DNA of 64,000 nucleotides from Candidatus Omnitrophota bacterium (GCA_903843285.1 CAIMPC010000016.1:1075-65074), one strand, 5' to 3'. Counted from the stretch's first letter, positions 39,549 through 58,846 are shown. The notes: generated by a model from the letters alone, not told the origin. Numbers and translations: made by a program.

Positions 39549-39986
39549 CTACAATATCTTCAGCAGATTCAAGCCGGTTTCGGGGTCGATATCTTTCGTT
39601 GCCTTCACGCCCTTTAATTCGAATACAACAGCTTCTATTACAAGGAAGACCTTCGATTTCTTGCGGACGCATCCGGTCAGGGTCTTAAGCTTTTTCCCCA
39701 TTGATGCGTGAATATGTATCTGAGGACCTTTTGAGTTGGTGTATATAGTGCCAATGCCCATAACCTCCCAGCCGTCATTAAACCCTACCCAGTTCGGCTC
39801 CGGTGGTATAACGCATTTTTTAGGGCCTGTTACCAGGTCGCCCTTCTTTAGCGCGCCTATAAAAACGAGCGTCGCGGTTTTGATCCGCTCTTTACGCGAT
39901 AGCTTATCGAGCTCATCGAGCAATACATCATCATCGGTGAATTTCACCAGGAATATTCTTCCCACATTACCTTTAGTGTACTTCAC
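39549..39986 (-). CDS. PPC-domain (DUF296) protein
   Basis: 145 aa beta-rich protein with a PPC-like pattern (G.GTI...P.IH.H). Confidence 0.5.
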   Translation of the reverse strand: MKYTKGNVGRIFLVKFTDDDVLLDELDKLSRKERIKTATLVFIGALKKGDLVTGPKKCVIPPEPNWVGFNDGWEVMGIGTIYTNSKGPQIHIHASMGKKLKTLTGCVRKKSKVFLVIEAVVFELKGVKATKDIDPETGLNLLKIL

Positions 39987-40245
39987 CGGATATATCCTTA
40001 TCTAATAGCATTATCGCTTTATTCCTAAAGACTTCAAAAAATCCGTTTGATTTTGAATCGAAGGTCTTGATATTCCCGGATGGATCATGTAGTGATATCA
40101 TCCCGGGTATAAGGCCGGATATGAACGGAGCATGGTTTGCGAGTACTCCAAAATATCCGATCTCCCCCGGTGCGACCAGGGACTGAATATCTCCTTCAAA
40201 TATCTTCCGCTGGCTTGATAATATTGTCAGGTGAAATAGAGCCAT
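39973..40245 (-). CDS. atpC: F-type ATP synthase epsilon subunit (beta-sandwich domain only)
   Basis: 90 aa immediately after atpD, matching the epsilon N-terminal domain (IVAPGEIGYFGVLANHAP). The usual C-terminal helical hairpin is absent. Confidence 0.7.
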   Translation of the reverse strand: MALFHLTILSSQRKIFEGDIQSLVAPGEIGYFGVLANHAPFISGLIPGMISLHDPSGNIKTFDSKSNGFFEVFRNKAIMLLDKDISGEVH

Positions 40246-40248
40246 AGT

Positions 40249-41655
40249 CTAATATCCGTCTTTGATCTTTTCTGCCTTAGCCATAGCCTCTTCGATAGTT
40301 CCAACCATGTAGAATGCCTGCTCCGGAAGATGGTCCAGTTTCCCCTCCAGGATTAGTTTAAATCCGTTAATAGTATCGGCAAGTTTTACATATCTTCCCT
40401 TAATGCCGGTAAATGCTTCGGCAACGAAGAATGGCTGGGAAAAAAACTTCTGGATCTTCCTTGCGCGGGCCACGAGCAGTTTGTCATCTTCTGATAATTC
40501 ATCTATGCCTAATATCGCGATGATATCACGCAGGTCTTTATATCTCTGAAGAACTTTTTGTGTATTCACGGCGGTATTATAATGCTCTTCACCGACTATC
40601 TTAGGTTCGAGTATCTTCGACGTAGAATCCAGCGGGTCTACGGCAGGATAGATACCCAGTTCCGATATCTGCCGCGACAGGACCATCTTGGCGTCAAGAT
40701 GCGAGAATGTGGTTGCCGGTGCCGGATCGGTGATATCGTCAGCGGGTACATACACCGCCTGGACCGACGTTATCGATCCGCGCTTAGTGGATACTATACG
40801 TTCCTGAAGCTGTGCCATTTCAGTCCCTAAAGACGGCTGGTATCCGACGGCTGATGGCATTCTTCCCAGAAGCGTCGATACTTCACTACCGGCCTGGACA
40901 TATCTGTAGATATTGTCGATGAAGAGCAGTACATCCATTCCCTCCTCGTCGCGGAAATGTTCGGCAACAGTTAAGGCCGATAACCCGACTCTGAAACGCG
41001 CGCCGGGCGGCTCGCTCATCTCTCCAAATATCAAAGCTGTCTTTTTTAAAACCCCGGACCTGTTAAGTTCAAGCCAAAGGTCATTACCCTCCCTGGTCCG
41101 CTCGCCGATTCCACCAAACACGGATACTCCCGAGTGCTCACTTGCGATAGTCCGTATAAGCTCCATAACTATGACGGTCTTTCCTACGCCTGCGCCGCCG
41201 AATAAGCCTATCTTTCCACCCTTTGGATACGGCGCCAGTAAGTCTATGACCTTAATGCCGGTCTCCAGCATGGCTGATACGGGAAGCTGCTCCTGAAATG
41301 ACGGCGGCTGTCTATGAATACTGTTACGCCTTTCCGGATTTGGCACCGGACCCAGACCATCTATAGGTTCTCCCAGCAGATTGAATACCCTACCCAGCGT
41401 CTGCTCGCCTACCGGTACTTTTATGGGCTCGCCCATAGCCATAGCCTTCATTCCTCGTACCAGGCCGTCCGTCGGCCCCATAGAGATACAGCGCGCGGTA
41501 TTATTTCCGATCAACTGCTCTACTTCCAGTGTTAAATCTATTTTATGCTCAGGGTACTCGATCTTGATAGCGCTGAATATTTCGGGCGTCTCAGATTCCG
41601 GAAACCTGATATCGACCACAGGCCCAATAACTTGAATAATATTTCCTTCTACCAT
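40249..41655 (-). CDS. atpD: F-type ATP synthase beta subunit
   Basis: 468 aa. Walker A GGAGVGKT, and DELSEED-like DELSEDD. Confidence 0.95.
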
Positions 41656-56445: not shown

Positions 56446-58786
56446 GACAAGCTGTGTCTGTAGTTGATGGTGCTGCCTCGGGTACTGGTCTCTTACTCTG
56501 CCATATAGCCCATATAAGCACCAGGCAGATTAAAGAGATTACAACCCACGCCTTAAAACCAAGATGATTGTATTGAACTACTATAGGCGCAATAATAACC
56601 GATACCAGATTAACTACCTTAATCATCGGATTAAGCGCAGGACCCGCAGTATCTTTAAGAGGGTCTCCGACCGTGTCACCTACGACGCCTGCCTTATGCC
56701 TCTCGGAACCCTTGCCGGTGTTAAGACAAACATCCTTAACCTCATCCTCGATTGTTTTCTTACAGTTATCCCAGGCGCCGCCTGCGTTCGACATGAATAC
56801 GGCTAAAAGCTGCCCTGAAAGTATTATTCCGGCCAGGAATCCGCCGAGGGCTTCTACCTGCAATACTGTACCTACCAATATCGGTGTTACTATGCAAATT
56901 ATAGCCAGACTTATCAGCTCTTTCTGAGCCGCTACAGTCGAAATGGCAACAGCCTGCCTATAGTCCGGCTTTACCTTACCTTCCAGCACACCCAATTTAA
57001 ACTGTCTTCTCACCTCTTCTACTATCAGCGCTGCAGCGCGGCTGACAGCCTGGATAGAGAACGCTGAGAATAACCATGGAAGCGCGCCCCCTATAAGCAT
57101 TCCTATAAATACCTGGGGCACTGAGACCCTTATACCTATCGATGATAATCTTTCCGCAAGAGGGACCCCCATTGCCATCTGAACTCTGCTCACATCGACC
57201 ATGTATGATCCAAATAGCGCTACGGCGGCTATGACAGCCGATCCTATCGCGACACCTTTAGTAATGGCTTTAGTCGTGTTCCCCACACCATCGAGATCGG
57301 CCATTATTCGTCTGGCATCGAGCGTCTCTTTGTCGGTCTGACCGTGCCATGCCATCTCGCCTATTCCATTTGCATTGTCGGCTATCGGTCCGAATGAATC
57401 CATGGCTACGTTATTGCCCGTAAGCGTTAGCATACCTATTCCCGTCATTGCTACTCCATAGAGTATATATGCTATTCTCTCAGTGCCTCCAACACCGGGC
57501 ATCGTCCCAAATATCATAATTGAACTGAATATCGTGGCCGATATCAATAATATGGACCATACCGATGATTCATAACCGACCGCTATTCCGGATAATATAG
57601 TGGTTGCGGCGCCGGTTTTTGTAGATTTTCGTATTTCTCTGACAGGCGCGCCTTCAGTTCCGGTAAAATATTCAGTGAGCCTGTCGATCATGATAGCTAA
57701 CAATACTCCGACTGCGGTAGCCAAAAATGGCCTCCACCAGCCGCCCGGCACCTTATTCATATACAGGAAGGCAAGAATACCGAATAAGACGACAGAGATC
57801 GCGGCCGACGTCAGGAACCCCTTGAATATGGCCTTCATTGCGTTTCCCTTTTTCTCGTTAGGGTCGCTTTTAACGGCATACGTACCTACGATTGAACAGA
57901 GCACGCCTATTCCGCGAACGAGTAGCGGATAGACTATCCACTCAAGCCTATGGGTTATATGGTATAACGCAAGACCTAGTATTAGCCCCGCAACGATAGT
58001 GACCTCGTATGATTCAAATATGTCAGCTGCCATTCCGGCGCAATCACCAACATTGTCACCGACCAGATCTGCTACGACTGCGGGGTTGCGCGGATCATCT
58101 TCAGGTATGTTATGCTCTACTTTTCCTACCAGATCCGCTCCTACGTCTGCGGCCTTTGTATAGATGCCTCCACCGACTCTCATAAAGAGCGCCAAAAGAG
58201 TTCCACCGAAGCCAAATCCTAACAGCGCATCCGGAGCGGCAATCCCGAATATAATAAATATTATCGTGCCGCCGAATAGGCCCAAGCCATCGGTCAGCAT
58301 ACCCGTTACGGTGCCGGCCCTATAAGCGATCCTGAGAGCATCCGCAAAAGACTTTTTTGCAGCCTGAGCCACGCGTACGTTGGCCTGAACTGCCATGCGC
58401 ATGCCAAGCTGTCCTACTAATAGGGAGAATATAGCGCCCATGATGAAGGCAAGCGCTCTGCCTATACCGATTATGAAACGGACTTGCGATTCGGACTGTC
58501 CGGCAAACCTCTGCATGGCTTCCACAGACGGAGGTACCACATAGACTGAGAGGAAGAGCGCAAACGTAAGTACACCTATAAGGGGCAGGATAGTGACTAA
58601 CTGTTTTTTTAAATATGTGTCGGCGCCCTCGCGGATCGCATTCCATACCTCTATCATCTTTGGAGAACCTTTATCCTCGGCAAGTATCTCTTTACGTAAG
58701 AAAAGCGCGTAGAGTAACCCAATGACTGATATCCCGAGAACGCCCCAAATTGCAAACTGTTCAAATACCGTAAGTCCGTAAACCAC
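56438..58786 (-). CDS. hppA: Membrane-bound H+-translocating pyrophosphatase, K+-independent type
   Basis: 782 aa, 16 TM helices. DVGADLVGKVE, DNVGDCAGMAAD and VGNTTKAITKG motifs. The Lys in GNTTKA is the established determinant of K+ independence. GTG start with a GGGGGG SD. Confidence 0.9.
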   Translation of the reverse strand: MVYGLTVFEQFAIWGVLGISVIGLLYALFLRKEILAEDKGSPKMIEVWNAIREGADTYLKKQLVTILPLIGVLTFALFLSVYVVPPSVEAMQRFAGQSESQVRFIIGIGRALAFIMGAIFSLLVGQLGMRMAVQANVRVAQAAKKSFADALRIAYRAGTVTGMLTDGLGLFGGTIIFIIFGIAAPDALLGFGFGGTLLALFMRVGGGIYTKAADVGADLVGKVEHNIPEDDPRNPAVVADLVGDNVGDCAGMAADIFESYEVTIVAGLILGLALYHITHRLEWIVYPLLVRGIGVLCSIVGTYAVKSDPNEKKGNAMKAIFKGFLTSAAISVVLFGILAFLYMNKVPGGWWRPFLATAVGVLLAIMIDRLTEYFTGTEGAPVREIRKSTKTGAATTILSGIAVGYESSVWSILLISATIFSSIMIFGTMPGVGGTERIAYILYGVAMTGIGMLTLTGNNVAMDSFGPIADNANGIGEMAWHGQTDKETLDARRIMADLDGVGNTTKAITKGVAIGSAVIAAVALFGSYMVDVSRVQMAMGVPLAERLSSIGIRVSVPQVFIGMLIGGALPWLFSAFSIQAVSRAAALIVEEVRRQFKLGVLEGKVKPDYRQAVAISTVAAQKELISLAIICIVTPILVGTVLQVEALGGFLAGIILSGQLLAVFMSNAGGAWDNCKKTIEDEVKDVCLNTGKGSERHKAGVVGDTVGDPLKDTAGPALNPMIKVVNLVSVIIAPIVVQYNHLGFKAWVVISLICLVLIWAIWQSKRPVPEAAPSTTDTACHE

Positions 58787-58804
58787 TTTATCCCCCCATT
58801 TTTT

Positions 58805-58846
58805 ATAATAAAAAAACAGCCCTGCCTCATTGTTGCGAGGCGGGCT
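58805..58846 (-). terminator. Intrinsic terminator / attenuator hairpin about 20 nt upstream of the hppA start codon
   Basis: On the minus-strand RNA, GCCCGCCUC-gcaacaau-GAGGCAGGGC forms a 9-bp stem with one bulge, followed by UGUUUUUUUAUUAU. The complementary strand has the A tract before the stem, so the element is strand-specific. Confidence 0.5.

Follow-up and report, generated by a model that had tools for sequence, protein, structure and literature searches.

A membrane pyrophosphatase, a group-4 [NiFe] hydrogenase and an F1Fo ATP synthase encoded on one strand in a tightly packed gene string of a Candidatus Omnitrophota bacterium

Omnitrophota are widespread, uncultured and mostly ultra-small bacteria, and their energy metabolism is known from gene inventories. 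In a stretch of 64,000 nucleotides (nt) from a Candidatus Omnitrophota bacterium (GCA_903843285.1, CAIMPC010000016.1:1075-65074; hereafter the window), we analyzed a gene string that encodes a membrane-integral pyrophosphatase (PPase; gene hppA), an 11-subunit group-4 [NiFe] hydrogenase with its protease HycI, and an F1Fo ATP synthase. The window is compact, has 38-48% G+C and carries nearly all of its genes on the minus strand. Close homologs of its proteins are all found in Candidatus Omnitrophota metagenome-assembled genomes (MAGs), and its contig has also been assembled in several public metagenomes, among them ENA ERZ27313068, JGI 3300025162 and SRR5754711. Some gene calls and precomputed Pfam matches were taken from L001, a contig identical to the window, and labels of this form denote related loci and contigs throughout. 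Related loci were collected by scanning GTDB species representatives with the hydrogenase large subunit, and the best 80 of at least 591 loci (61-81% identity) were compared. The first antiporter gene of the hydrogenase is denoted as L1, and the 12 genes from L1 to hycI as the cassette. The string comprises 23 intact, co-directional open reading frames (ORFs) on the minus strand, running from 58786 to 39973 in the order hppA, 11 hydrogenase subunits, hycI and atpZ-I-B-E-F-H-A-G-D-C:

56438..58786, minus strand: hppA, membrane-integral PPase of the K+-independent type, 782 amino acids (aa), GTG start (PF03030, NF001952)
55009..56445, minus strand: antiporter-like subunit 1 (L1, NuoL/HyfD-like, 478 aa), its ATG overlapping the hppA stop by 8 nt (PF00361, PF00662, NCBIfam)
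53184..55004, minus strand: antiporter-like subunit 2, full-length NuoL-like with a C-terminal extension, 606 aa (PF00361; NF005141 NuoL)
51738..53168, minus strand: antiporter-like subunit 3, NuoM/N/MrpD-like, 476 aa (PF00361, NCBIfam)
51232..51741, minus strand: MbhD/NuoJ-like membrane subunit, 169 aa (PF13244 and PF00499, both weak; colinear in 58 related loci)
50922..51242, minus strand: NuoK/MbhG-like subunit, 106 aa from the ATG at 51242 (PF00420; gene call on L001)
50586..50918, minus strand: NuoA/MbhI-like small membrane subunit, 110 aa (PF00507 at E=0.0025, below threshold; same position in 50 loci)
50132..50584, minus strand: hydrogenase small subunit, NuoB/MbhJ-like, 150 aa (PF01058; four Cys as CxxC ... 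C ... CP)
49648..50139, minus strand: NuoC/MbhK-like subunit, 163 aa (PF00329; gene call on L001)
48426..49646, minus strand: [NiFe] large subunit, NuoD/MbhL-like, 406 aa (PF00346, PF00374)
47484..48425, minus strand: NuoH/MbhM-like membrane subunit, 313 aa (PF00146)
47110..47517, minus strand: NuoI/MbhN-like 2x[4Fe-4S] subunit, 135 aa (Fer4 families; two CxxCxxCxxxCP motifs)
46644..47141, minus strand: HycI-type maturation endopeptidase, 165 aa (PF01750)
46416..46643, minus strand: atpZ, 75 aa, starting on the base after the hycI stop (PF09527 at E=0.058; L094 ortholog)
46066..46416, minus strand: probable atpI, 116 aa (position between atpZ and atpB; PF03899 at E=1.7 only)
39973..46084, minus strand: atpB-E-F-H-A-G-D-C, encoding subunits a, c, b, delta, alpha, gamma, beta and a truncated epsilon (Pfam)

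All junctions from hppA to atpC fall between -34 and +17 nt, with gaps of -34 to +15 nt between the hydrogenase genes and of -19 to +17 nt between the atp genes. The TAA of hppA lies inside ATGAATAA of L1, which gives an overlap of 8 nt, and the hycI stop codon is followed by the atpZ ATG on the very next base. The junctions of the modules are -8 nt (hppA/L1), 0 nt (hycI/atpZ) and -14 nt (atpC and the following PCC gene), and no terminator-like site was found at any of them. Internal junctions are too short for a terminator, and the module boundaries are too short for a promoter. Within genes, terminator-like matches are weak (24 on both strands versus 16.2 +/- 3 in shuffled sequences), and promoter-like hexamers occur at chance level. 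An earlier reading of the window from its sequence (hereafter the original prediction) had described this string, and all the genes that it named are present, intact and co-directional on the minus strand. The 8-nt overlap, the direct hycI/atpZ abutment and the lack of an internal terminator agree with it as well. It had put the hydrogenase gaps at -30 to +15 nt, where the coupling-type spacing stands and the measured lower end is -34 nt. Its view that the string ends at atpC was not borne out, since four further genes follow without a gap to 35864:

35864..39986, minus strand: continuation of the string, consisting of a PCC/DUF296-domain protein, a HAD hydrolase and two radical-SAM proteins (same genes 3' of atpC in L007, L086, L087 and L094, and directly 3' of hycI in L006 and L008)

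The gaps after atpC are -14, +24, -8 and +3 nt, and the whole gap-free string counts 27 genes over 23 kb, ending at 35864 against a convergent helicase gene. A tRNA scan of the window found none, and an Rfam scan of the whole window at gathering thresholds returned no match.

HppA matched the full PF03030 profile (H_PPase fold, 16 transmembrane helices) with 789 bits over residues 21-732 (profile 1-645/645) and NF001952 with 967 bits against a cutoff of 912, and its N-terminus aligns with that of the L007 ortholog from residue 1. The nearest solved structures are the Vigna H+-PPase and the K+-insensitive H+ pump 8B37, with top E values of 1e-133 or better. As the ORF is intact and its PF03030 match is full length, hppA is neither a pseudogene nor a gene for something other than a PPase, the two doubts that had been raised beforehand. 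In its signature GNTTKAITKG, Lys replaces Ala in GNxx(K/A), and Thr replaces Gly three residues on. By the GNxx(K/A) rule for K+ dependence (PMC4814513), the diagnostic Lys and Thr bear out the predicted K+-independent type. The name 'sodium-translocating' pyrophosphatase is common to all 13 PRK00733 sub-models in NCBIfam, and the label is thus not discriminating; considering this generic label and the K/T signature, we set aside a Na+-pumping identity drawn from the name. To our knowledge, the characterized K+-independent membrane PPases all pump H+, and by this rule HppA would pump H+.

The hydrogenase genes form a complete group 4 set with NuoB-like, NuoI-like and NuoH-like subunits and three antiporter-like subunits, in the order L-L-M/N-J-K-A-B-C-D-H-I. 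The large subunit has the motifs L1 (CGICSHTH) and L2 (DPCFSCTDR) with all four [NiFe] cysteines, both invariant in 12 homologs, where group 4 motifs are defined as C[GS][ILV]C[AGNS]xxH and [DE][PL]Cx[AGST]Cx[DE][RL], respectively (PMC7886697). Past the Arg of DPCFSCTDR, it extends by a 46-residue C-terminal tail, which fits the HycI protease encoded two genes downstream. HycI was detected in 49 related loci, and hycI lies downstream in nearly all loci. The nearest solved chain of the large subunit is MbhL of 6CFW (339 bits), ahead of HycE and Nqo4. Antiporter-like subunit 2 aligns with NF005141 NuoL over residues 2-605 (profile 2-610/615), and the Glu/Lys/Lys/Lys residues of functional proton channels are kept in all three antiporter-like subunits, as seen directly in the sequence of subunit 1 and, for subunit 2, by alignment to MrpA and MbhH. 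The 11-subunit group-4 hydrogenase with HycI that had been predicted is accordingly confirmed by Pfam families and by the [NiFe] motifs.

The same inventory could be taken for complex I without NuoEFG, or for an Fpo-like ferredoxin:quinone oxidoreductase in an ordinary respiratory-chain cluster. The 11 subunits are the 11 core Nuo subunits, the large subunit scored 235 bits on PF00346 (Complex1_49kDa) and 336 bits on the NCBIfam NuoD model, just below the cutoff of 360, and its homologs are named 'NADH-quinone oxidoreductase subunit D' by JGI. However, the four [NiFe] cysteines are present and invariant in homologs, the C-terminal tail is retained with a HycI gene downstream in nearly all loci, HypD, HypE and HypF lie beside the cassette in some loci, and the best solved match is MbhL rather than Nqo4. 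NuoEFG homologs were found neither in the string nor in the 64-kb window, and no quinone-related context was seen in the window. With the [NiFe] ligands, the tail and HycI, the sequence effectively refutes a respiratory complex I, and this explanation is hardly credible. A survey of Omnitrophota listed 'respiratory complex I (PF00346)' in some orders (PMC10066038). Considering how strongly a [NiFe] large subunit scores on PF00346, some of the reported Omnitrophota complex I may be this hydrogenase.

All 11 ORFs of the hydrogenase are homologs of the Nuo core. As an identity, Mbh sensu stricto (group 4d, Mrp-linked) was rejected because the cassette has no Mrp small-subunit (Na+) module: homologs of MbhA, B, C and F or MrpE, F, G and B are missing from it. 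Omnitrophota membrane hydrogenases have been classed as 4g by HydDB (PMC8542988, PMC10066038), and group 4g is heterogeneous, with no member characterized biochemically (PMC7886697, PMC8542988, PMC10066038).

In the ATP synthase, atpB, E, F, H and C were assigned from Pfam matches on the window, and atpA, G and D from those on the identical contig L001. The eight F1Fo structural subunits are complete in the order atpBEFHAGDC. Over its whole length, AtpZ shares 45% identity with the L094 ortholog, and that ortholog scores above the PF09527 threshold; the probable AtpI is 45% identical to the product of the L094 gene in the same position and was assigned mainly by position. The predicted complete F1Fo set could therefore be confirmed with atpZ and, weakly, with atpI. 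At its ion site, the c subunit has the H+-type sequence EAITIY; among solved structures, chloroplast H+ rings, which have EALTIY, are nearest to it. The Leu, Ala and Ile of the c subunit align to Gln32, Ser66 and Thr67, which we take to be the Na+ ligands of the Ilyobacter tartaricus c subunit. A Na+-coupled F-ATP synthase was rejected, as the c subunit is without the Gln/Ser/Thr Na+ ligands, and so was an N-ATPase (atpDCQRBEFAG), as the order here is Z-I-B-E-F-H-A-G-D-C and delta is present. Taken together, the H+-type signatures of HppA and the c subunit point to H+ as the probable coupling ion of the machines encoded on either side of the hydrogenase, which itself has no Mrp module.

The epsilon subunit (39973-40245) has 90 aa and consists of the PF02823 beta-sandwich domain only, not of the two-domain form. 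We observed epsilon subunits of 84-91 aa with only the beta-sandwich in L086, L087, L088, L007, L009, L092, L094 and L053, while that of the Phycisphaerales locus L013 is long.

The intergenic region of 515 nt upstream of hppA contains two features:

58924..58952, minus strand: promoter-like site TTGAAA-17 nt-(TGn)TATGAT, with 10/12 matches plus an extended -10 TG
58810..58846, minus strand: terminator-like hairpin (AGCCCGCCUC / GAGGCAGGGCU) followed by U7 (58816..58810), 23 nt upstream of the hppA GTG (dG -19 kcal/mol, z=-3.4)

Given the strong promoter-like site at 58952..58924, the 5' untranslated region of hppA is probably about 130 nt long. Hence, of the 515-nt leader with an attenuator-like terminator in the original prediction, the hairpin with U7 is real, and the 515 nt are the intergenic region rather than a leader. 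The hairpin is GC-rich, with GGGGGG and then the GTG start on its 3' side, and its sequence occurs once in the window. It is about 82% identical to a hairpin directly upstream of L1 in L086, L087 and L088, all of which are without hppA, and TTGAAA-17-TGnTAnnnT precedes the homologous hairpin there. The hairpin recurs upstream of hppA in L089 and L094, again at about 82% identity, with a TTGAAC/TTGAAA-17-TATAGT promoter, and a variant is present in L090; in L007, L091 and L092, the equivalent place is taken by another hairpin with a U-run. The gene 5' of the leader varies from locus to locus (methyltransferase, GltD, GSIII or permease), which indicates that the leader element belongs to the downstream operon. 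As hppA is located between the operon leader and L1, and as a common leader stands before either hppA or L1, hppA appears to lie within the hydrogenase transcription unit. The shared leader is the best sequence-level argument for a common promoter of hppA and the hydrogenase, which it suggests here.

Possible roles of the leader hairpin are attenuation, recognition by an antitermination factor or stabilization of the 5' end. The promoter-hairpin distance is about 15-90 nt among relatives, and in L086-L088 the hairpin starts about 15 nt past the -10 element, leaving no room for a classical antiterminator or aptamer. A permissive Rfam scan of the leader gave only a chance miRNA match, and thus no known riboswitch explains the leader. 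An exact hairpin-pattern scan across metagenomes returned 0 matches with a pattern that was probably too strict. Upstream of the promoter, about 350 nt (58953-59301) separate it from a methyltransferase gene, a rare long non-coding gap in this compact window, in which we found neither a convincing ORF nor homology to one, no resemblance to the genes located before hppA in other loci, no Rfam match and no exceptional folding energy. That the 515-nt region might derive, by decay, from the permease gene found before hppA in relatives was also considered and was rejected, as tblastn/blastx gave no signal; no significant RNA structure was detected either (z=+0.6). In further loci, a near-consensus sigma-70 promoter with a hairpin plus U-run only a few nt behind it, and the L1 start codon next, was noticed in L046 (3100-3193), L029 (3070-3173), L039, L021, L045 and L080, from Planctomycetales, Omnitrophota, Endomicrobiales, Margulisiibacteriota and Eubacteriales MAGs; L046 has an additional, separate terminator for the gene upstream. 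Enrichment of a hairpin plus U-run before L1 across phyla was not significant (4/46 versus 7/207 in a crude control, Fisher p=0.12); the cases in L008, L021, L029, L039, L045, L046 and L080 are anecdotal, and the conserved leader hairpin is claimed for the Omnitrophota clade only.

Comparing the locus within Omnitrophota, also on contigs that encode close homologs, we observed the following arrangements:

window, L007, L094: hppA-hyd-atp-PCC-HAD, the full triple (hppA/L1 gaps of -8, +19 and +85 nt)
L086, L087, L088: hyd-atp-PCC-HAD-rSAM without hppA (large subunit 86-87% identical; GltBD or GSIII upstream instead)
L009, L028: hyd-atp, upstream part cut off
L089, L090 (contig ends), L091/L093 (no atp): hppA-hyd
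L006, L008: hyd followed directly by PCC-HAD-rSAM
L092: hppA-atp without the hydrogenase, with a terminator and a promoter between hppA and atpZ

Every pairwise combination of the three modules occurs among relatives, and the modules are repeatedly linked yet separable. Where it could be resolved, the hycI/atp gap is -11 to +16 nt in six other species. Spacers between hppA and L1 showed features of their own: that of L091 (12326-12394) is 69 nt long with a palindromic repeat-like element (GTCATTGCGAGGAGCGAACGAAGTGAGCGACGAAGCAATC) that is missing from the window, and the 85-nt spacer of L094 contains a long perfect hairpin without a U-run.

Beyond Omnitrophota, the best 80 loci included Elusimicrobiota, Margulisiibacteriota, Planctomycetota, Verrucomicrobiota, Spirochaetota, Fibrobacterota, Bacillota, Myxococcota, NC10 and Actinomycetota. 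In essentially every one of these loci, the 12-gene cassette keeps its gene order from L1 through hycI, so the hydrogenase itself is a common, laterally widespread type. When all flanking ORFs were clustered without prior labels, the top non-cassette families among these loci were hppA (12), F1 alpha/beta and gamma (8), ExbB (6) and DedA/VTT (6), with HypD, HypE and HypF behind hppA and F1 at 4 loci each. Within 10 kb, hppA was found in 13/80 loci versus about 1% expected, which is our own estimate for one hppA per few-Mb genome and applies to loci that are phylogenetically non-independent. Where it shares the strand of the cassette, hppA lies either upstream or downstream, and it also occurs downstream in convergent orientation; the hppA-hydrogenase linkage takes at least six distinct configurations. 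The order is atp-hyd-hppA in L013, a Phycisphaerales MAG, and in L053 a stretch of 10 kb contains hyd, hppA and a convergent atp. The search of other genomes that the original prediction had proposed thus found hppA beside the group-4 hydrogenase recurrently, as its commonest non-cassette neighbor among the best 80 loci.

Two PPase subfamilies take part in this linkage. A divergent membrane-PPase subfamily of 805-912 aa with GNTFKATAKP instead of GNTT(K/A)AxxKG was observed in L011, L013, L020, L027, L036 and L057 (e.g. L013:13165-15585). It matches PF03030 over the full length at about 600 bits and is only about 30% identical to HppA of the window, and it adjoins the same cassette in Planctomycetota and Elusimicrobiota. 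The GNTTKAxTKG and GNTFKATAKP subfamilies beside the cassette both carry the diagnostic Lys. In three Omnitrophota, exbB/exbD-like genes for proton-channel motor proteins stand between the cassette and a downstream same-strand hppA (L014:11428-12575, L017:6263-7918, L030:5118-6174), in L017 together with a DedA/VTT gene.

These comparisons bear on whether the string is a functional unit at all. Its modules could instead be three independent units and four further genes that were squeezed together by streamlining, with promoters inside coding regions, and whose adjacency is a matter of history. Several observations speak for this and weigh against a functional unit. Gaps of at most 20 nt also separate about two thirds of the window's remaining co-directional gene pairs, and the gap-free string runs on into four functionally unrelated genes, which is in keeping with genome-wide compactness; the module junctions are no tighter than the genome norm and, taken alone, are weak evidence for functional coupling. 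Modules have been gained and lost independently: the closest relatives (L086-L088) are without hppA at the locus, L006, L008 and L093 without atp, and L092 without the hydrogenase, and the terminator plus promoter of L092 separate hppA from atpZ. Promoter-like hexamers inside genes, at their chance rate, are also available to such an account. On the other hand, hppA and F1Fo are the two most frequent non-cassette neighbors among the best 80 loci, which span more than 10 phyla; their order and orientation vary, both PPase subfamilies take part, and the 13/80 hppA loci stand against roughly 1% by our chance estimate. Furthermore, the leader before hppA or L1 is conserved and the hycI/atp gap stays tight in the six other species, whereas the candidate internal atp promoter in the 3' end of hycI, TATAAT in the window, corresponds to Ile-Ile-Gly codons and is not conserved, and was rejected. 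Neutral adjacency is hard to reconcile with the cross-phylum neighbor statistics and the leader, and we consider it unlikely. The coordinated expression that the original prediction deduced from the junctions becomes more plausible through the conserved leader and the hycI/atp abutment, although the junction argument was overstated and the triple is not obligatory. From these features we infer co-transcription of the three modules.

Based on the above, we favor, with a rough probability of 0.6, a proton-based chemiosmotic super-operon in which pyrophosphate (PPi) and reduced ferredoxin build a gradient that F1Fo harvests, the whole being expressed as a unit. The host is probably a fermentative or acetogenic Omnitrophota bacterium. 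The string would be transcribed mainly from the promoter upstream of hppA, and the promoter-proximal hairpin plus U-run may set the transcription that enters it, via some factor. HppA would recover the energy of biosynthetic PPi and export H+. Group-4 enzymes by default evolve H2 with ion export, and the hydrogenase would likewise oxidize reduced ferredoxin, make H2 and export H+; ferredoxin is the presumed donor because the cassette has no dehydrogenase module. The co-expressed F1Fo would then turn the proton-motive force into ATP.

The opposite direction had been put forward in the original prediction as reverse electron flow to ferredoxin. In such a mode, a gradient from hydrolysis of PPi, and possibly ATP, would drive H2-dependent ferredoxin reduction for CO2 fixation or biosynthesis. 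The Ech hydrogenase of some methanogens reduces ferredoxin by H2 in this reverse mode, and group-4 enzymes are reversible in principle. Moreover, the epsilon C-terminal helical domain inhibits ATP hydrolysis in other bacteria, and with epsilon at 84-91 aa and without this domain throughout the clade, ATP-driven proton pumping is also possible, which counts against a purely ATP-forming role. For Hfo of Bathyarchaeia, an 11-subunit complex, a reverse mode has been put forward (PMC7886697). Acetogenesis is predicted for some Omnitrophota that have 4g hydrogenases (PMC10066038), and the linkage of hppA to this hydrogenase is seen in different phyla. In which direction the hydrogenase and the ATPase run in vivo is itself inferred, and the sequence does not discriminate between directions, which tells against either assignment. 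We found no sequence indication of PPi- or gradient-driven ferredoxin reduction by H2, and the 64-kb window contains no Wood-Ljungdahl or other ferredoxin-consuming CO2-fixation gene. In published work, Omnitrophota 4g enzymes are taken to evolve H2 so as to balance redox (PMC8542988). A complete ATP synthase downstream is more simply a consumer of the gradient; it fits a circuit of 'two generators and one consumer' at least as well as reverse flow. Operation chiefly in reverse is therefore a doubtful account of the string. A bolder version, in which the 20-kb string is a proton circuit that is obligatorily co-expressed, gated by the hairpin plus U-run as an undescribed promoter-proximal attenuator, and reversible, such that PPi plus ATP hydrolysis by an F1Fo without epsilon autoinhibition energize H2-dependent ferredoxin reduction, seems quite improbable to us. 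If it were true, PPi would be a genuine energy currency with which ultra-small Omnitrophota drive reverse electron transport.

Other genes in the window were also examined. Downstream of the string, 11828-31113 contains many genes for glutamine amidotransferases and nucleotide synthesis, namely purQ-like, purS/L, guaA, purF-like, carA and pyrG genes and one for a glutamate-synthase-domain protein. The carB gene occurs as two ORFs, an N-terminal half (23433-25100) and a second half with the MGS domain (18427-20007). Between the two halves lie genes for a bacterial GH3-family protein (PF03321, 21734-23404) and for a Dus tRNA-dihydrouridine synthase, as well as a gap of 486 nt. The operon leader of relatives directly follows GSIII-GltB-GltD(-permease) (L086:1-3083, L088:1-3073, L089:1-9825). 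Considering the glutamine and nucleotide genes in the window and GSIII-GltB-GltD in relatives, nitrogen and glutamine genes are consistent neighbors of the energy operon. A phosphofructokinase (32720-33826) combines GGDG, as in ATP-dependent enzymes, with PKTIDND, whose Lys is typical of PPi-dependent ones; its donor is ambiguous and was not used as evidence. NfnAB/Sud-like genes (29686-31940) and a rubrerythrin adjoin it.

The three proton machines of one large Omnitrophota clade come packaged as a unit and are probably also regulated as one. The coupling ion argued for here, in the PPase as well as in the ATP synthase, is H+ rather than Na+; published annotations call HppA a sodium pump. The favored super-operon offers a concrete and testable model of how ATP might be obtained from ferredoxin and PPi in Omnitrophota, and the linkage of K+-independent PPases to this hydrogenase in more than six phyla hints at a connection between PPi hydrolysis and H2 metabolism in anaerobes. 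Known bioenergetics is not overturned.

Each part belongs to a known kind of machine, and what appears to be undescribed is only how they are packaged together. Omnitrophota inventories have already listed both group 4g hydrogenases and HppA (PMC8542988, PMC10066038). In full-text literature of incomplete coverage, we found no description of an operon joining a PPase, an energy-converting hydrogenase and an ATP synthase, in agreement with the original prediction, and no report of the hppA-hydrogenase neighborhood trend. HppA shares the full PF03030 domain, GNTTKAxTKG and DVGADLVGK with the K+-independent H+-PPases (Pyrobaculum 8B37, Rhodospirillum rubrum type) and differs in that its gene is the first cistron of a hydrogenase operon, with an 8-nt overlap with the next gene. 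Pyrococcus furiosus Mbh (4d, 6CFW) provides the best solved match of the large subunit, its MbhH is close to antiporter-like subunit 2, its 3' gene order MbhI-J-K-L-M-N equals NuoA-like, B, C, D, H and I, and it presumably shares the coupling of ferredoxin oxidation and H2 formation to ion export. In contrast to Mbh, the window has no homologs of MbhA, B, C and F (the Na+ module) and has three large antiporter-like subunits instead of one, including one with a NuoL-type C-terminal extension; the host is bacterial, and the cassette is joined to hppA and atp.

The 'Hfo' of Bathyarchaeia, an 11-subunit, Fpo-like group 4g hydrogenase (Loh et al. 2021, PMC7886697), resembles the present complex in its 11 complex-I-core subunits, its intact [NiFe] motifs and the lack of a NuoEFG or FpoF module. 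The gene order of the window, L-L-M/N-J-K-A-B-C-D-H-I, is not that of Nuo/Fpo, and published descriptions of group 4g make no mention of hppA or atp in the same string. Complex I (NuoA-N) and the NuoEFG-less 11-subunit Nuo share the inventory, the three charged antiporter-like pumps and the long NuoL, whereas the NuoD homolog here keeps the [NiFe] cysteines, a cleavable tail and a dedicated protease. The canonical bacterial atp operon is atp(Z)IBEFHAGDC, with atpZ as in Bacillus. The window follows its gene order, atpZ and atpI included, and its eight structural subunits, but has neither intergenic space nor a recognizable promoter of its own before atp, and its epsilon is truncated. A precedent for joining energy-converting hydrogenases with ion-handling modules exists in the modular clusters of Thermococcus (fdh-mfh-mnh and codh-mch-mnh), where the hydrogenase is joined by substrate dehydrogenases and Mrp antiporters and not, as in the window, by a PPase and an ATP synthase.

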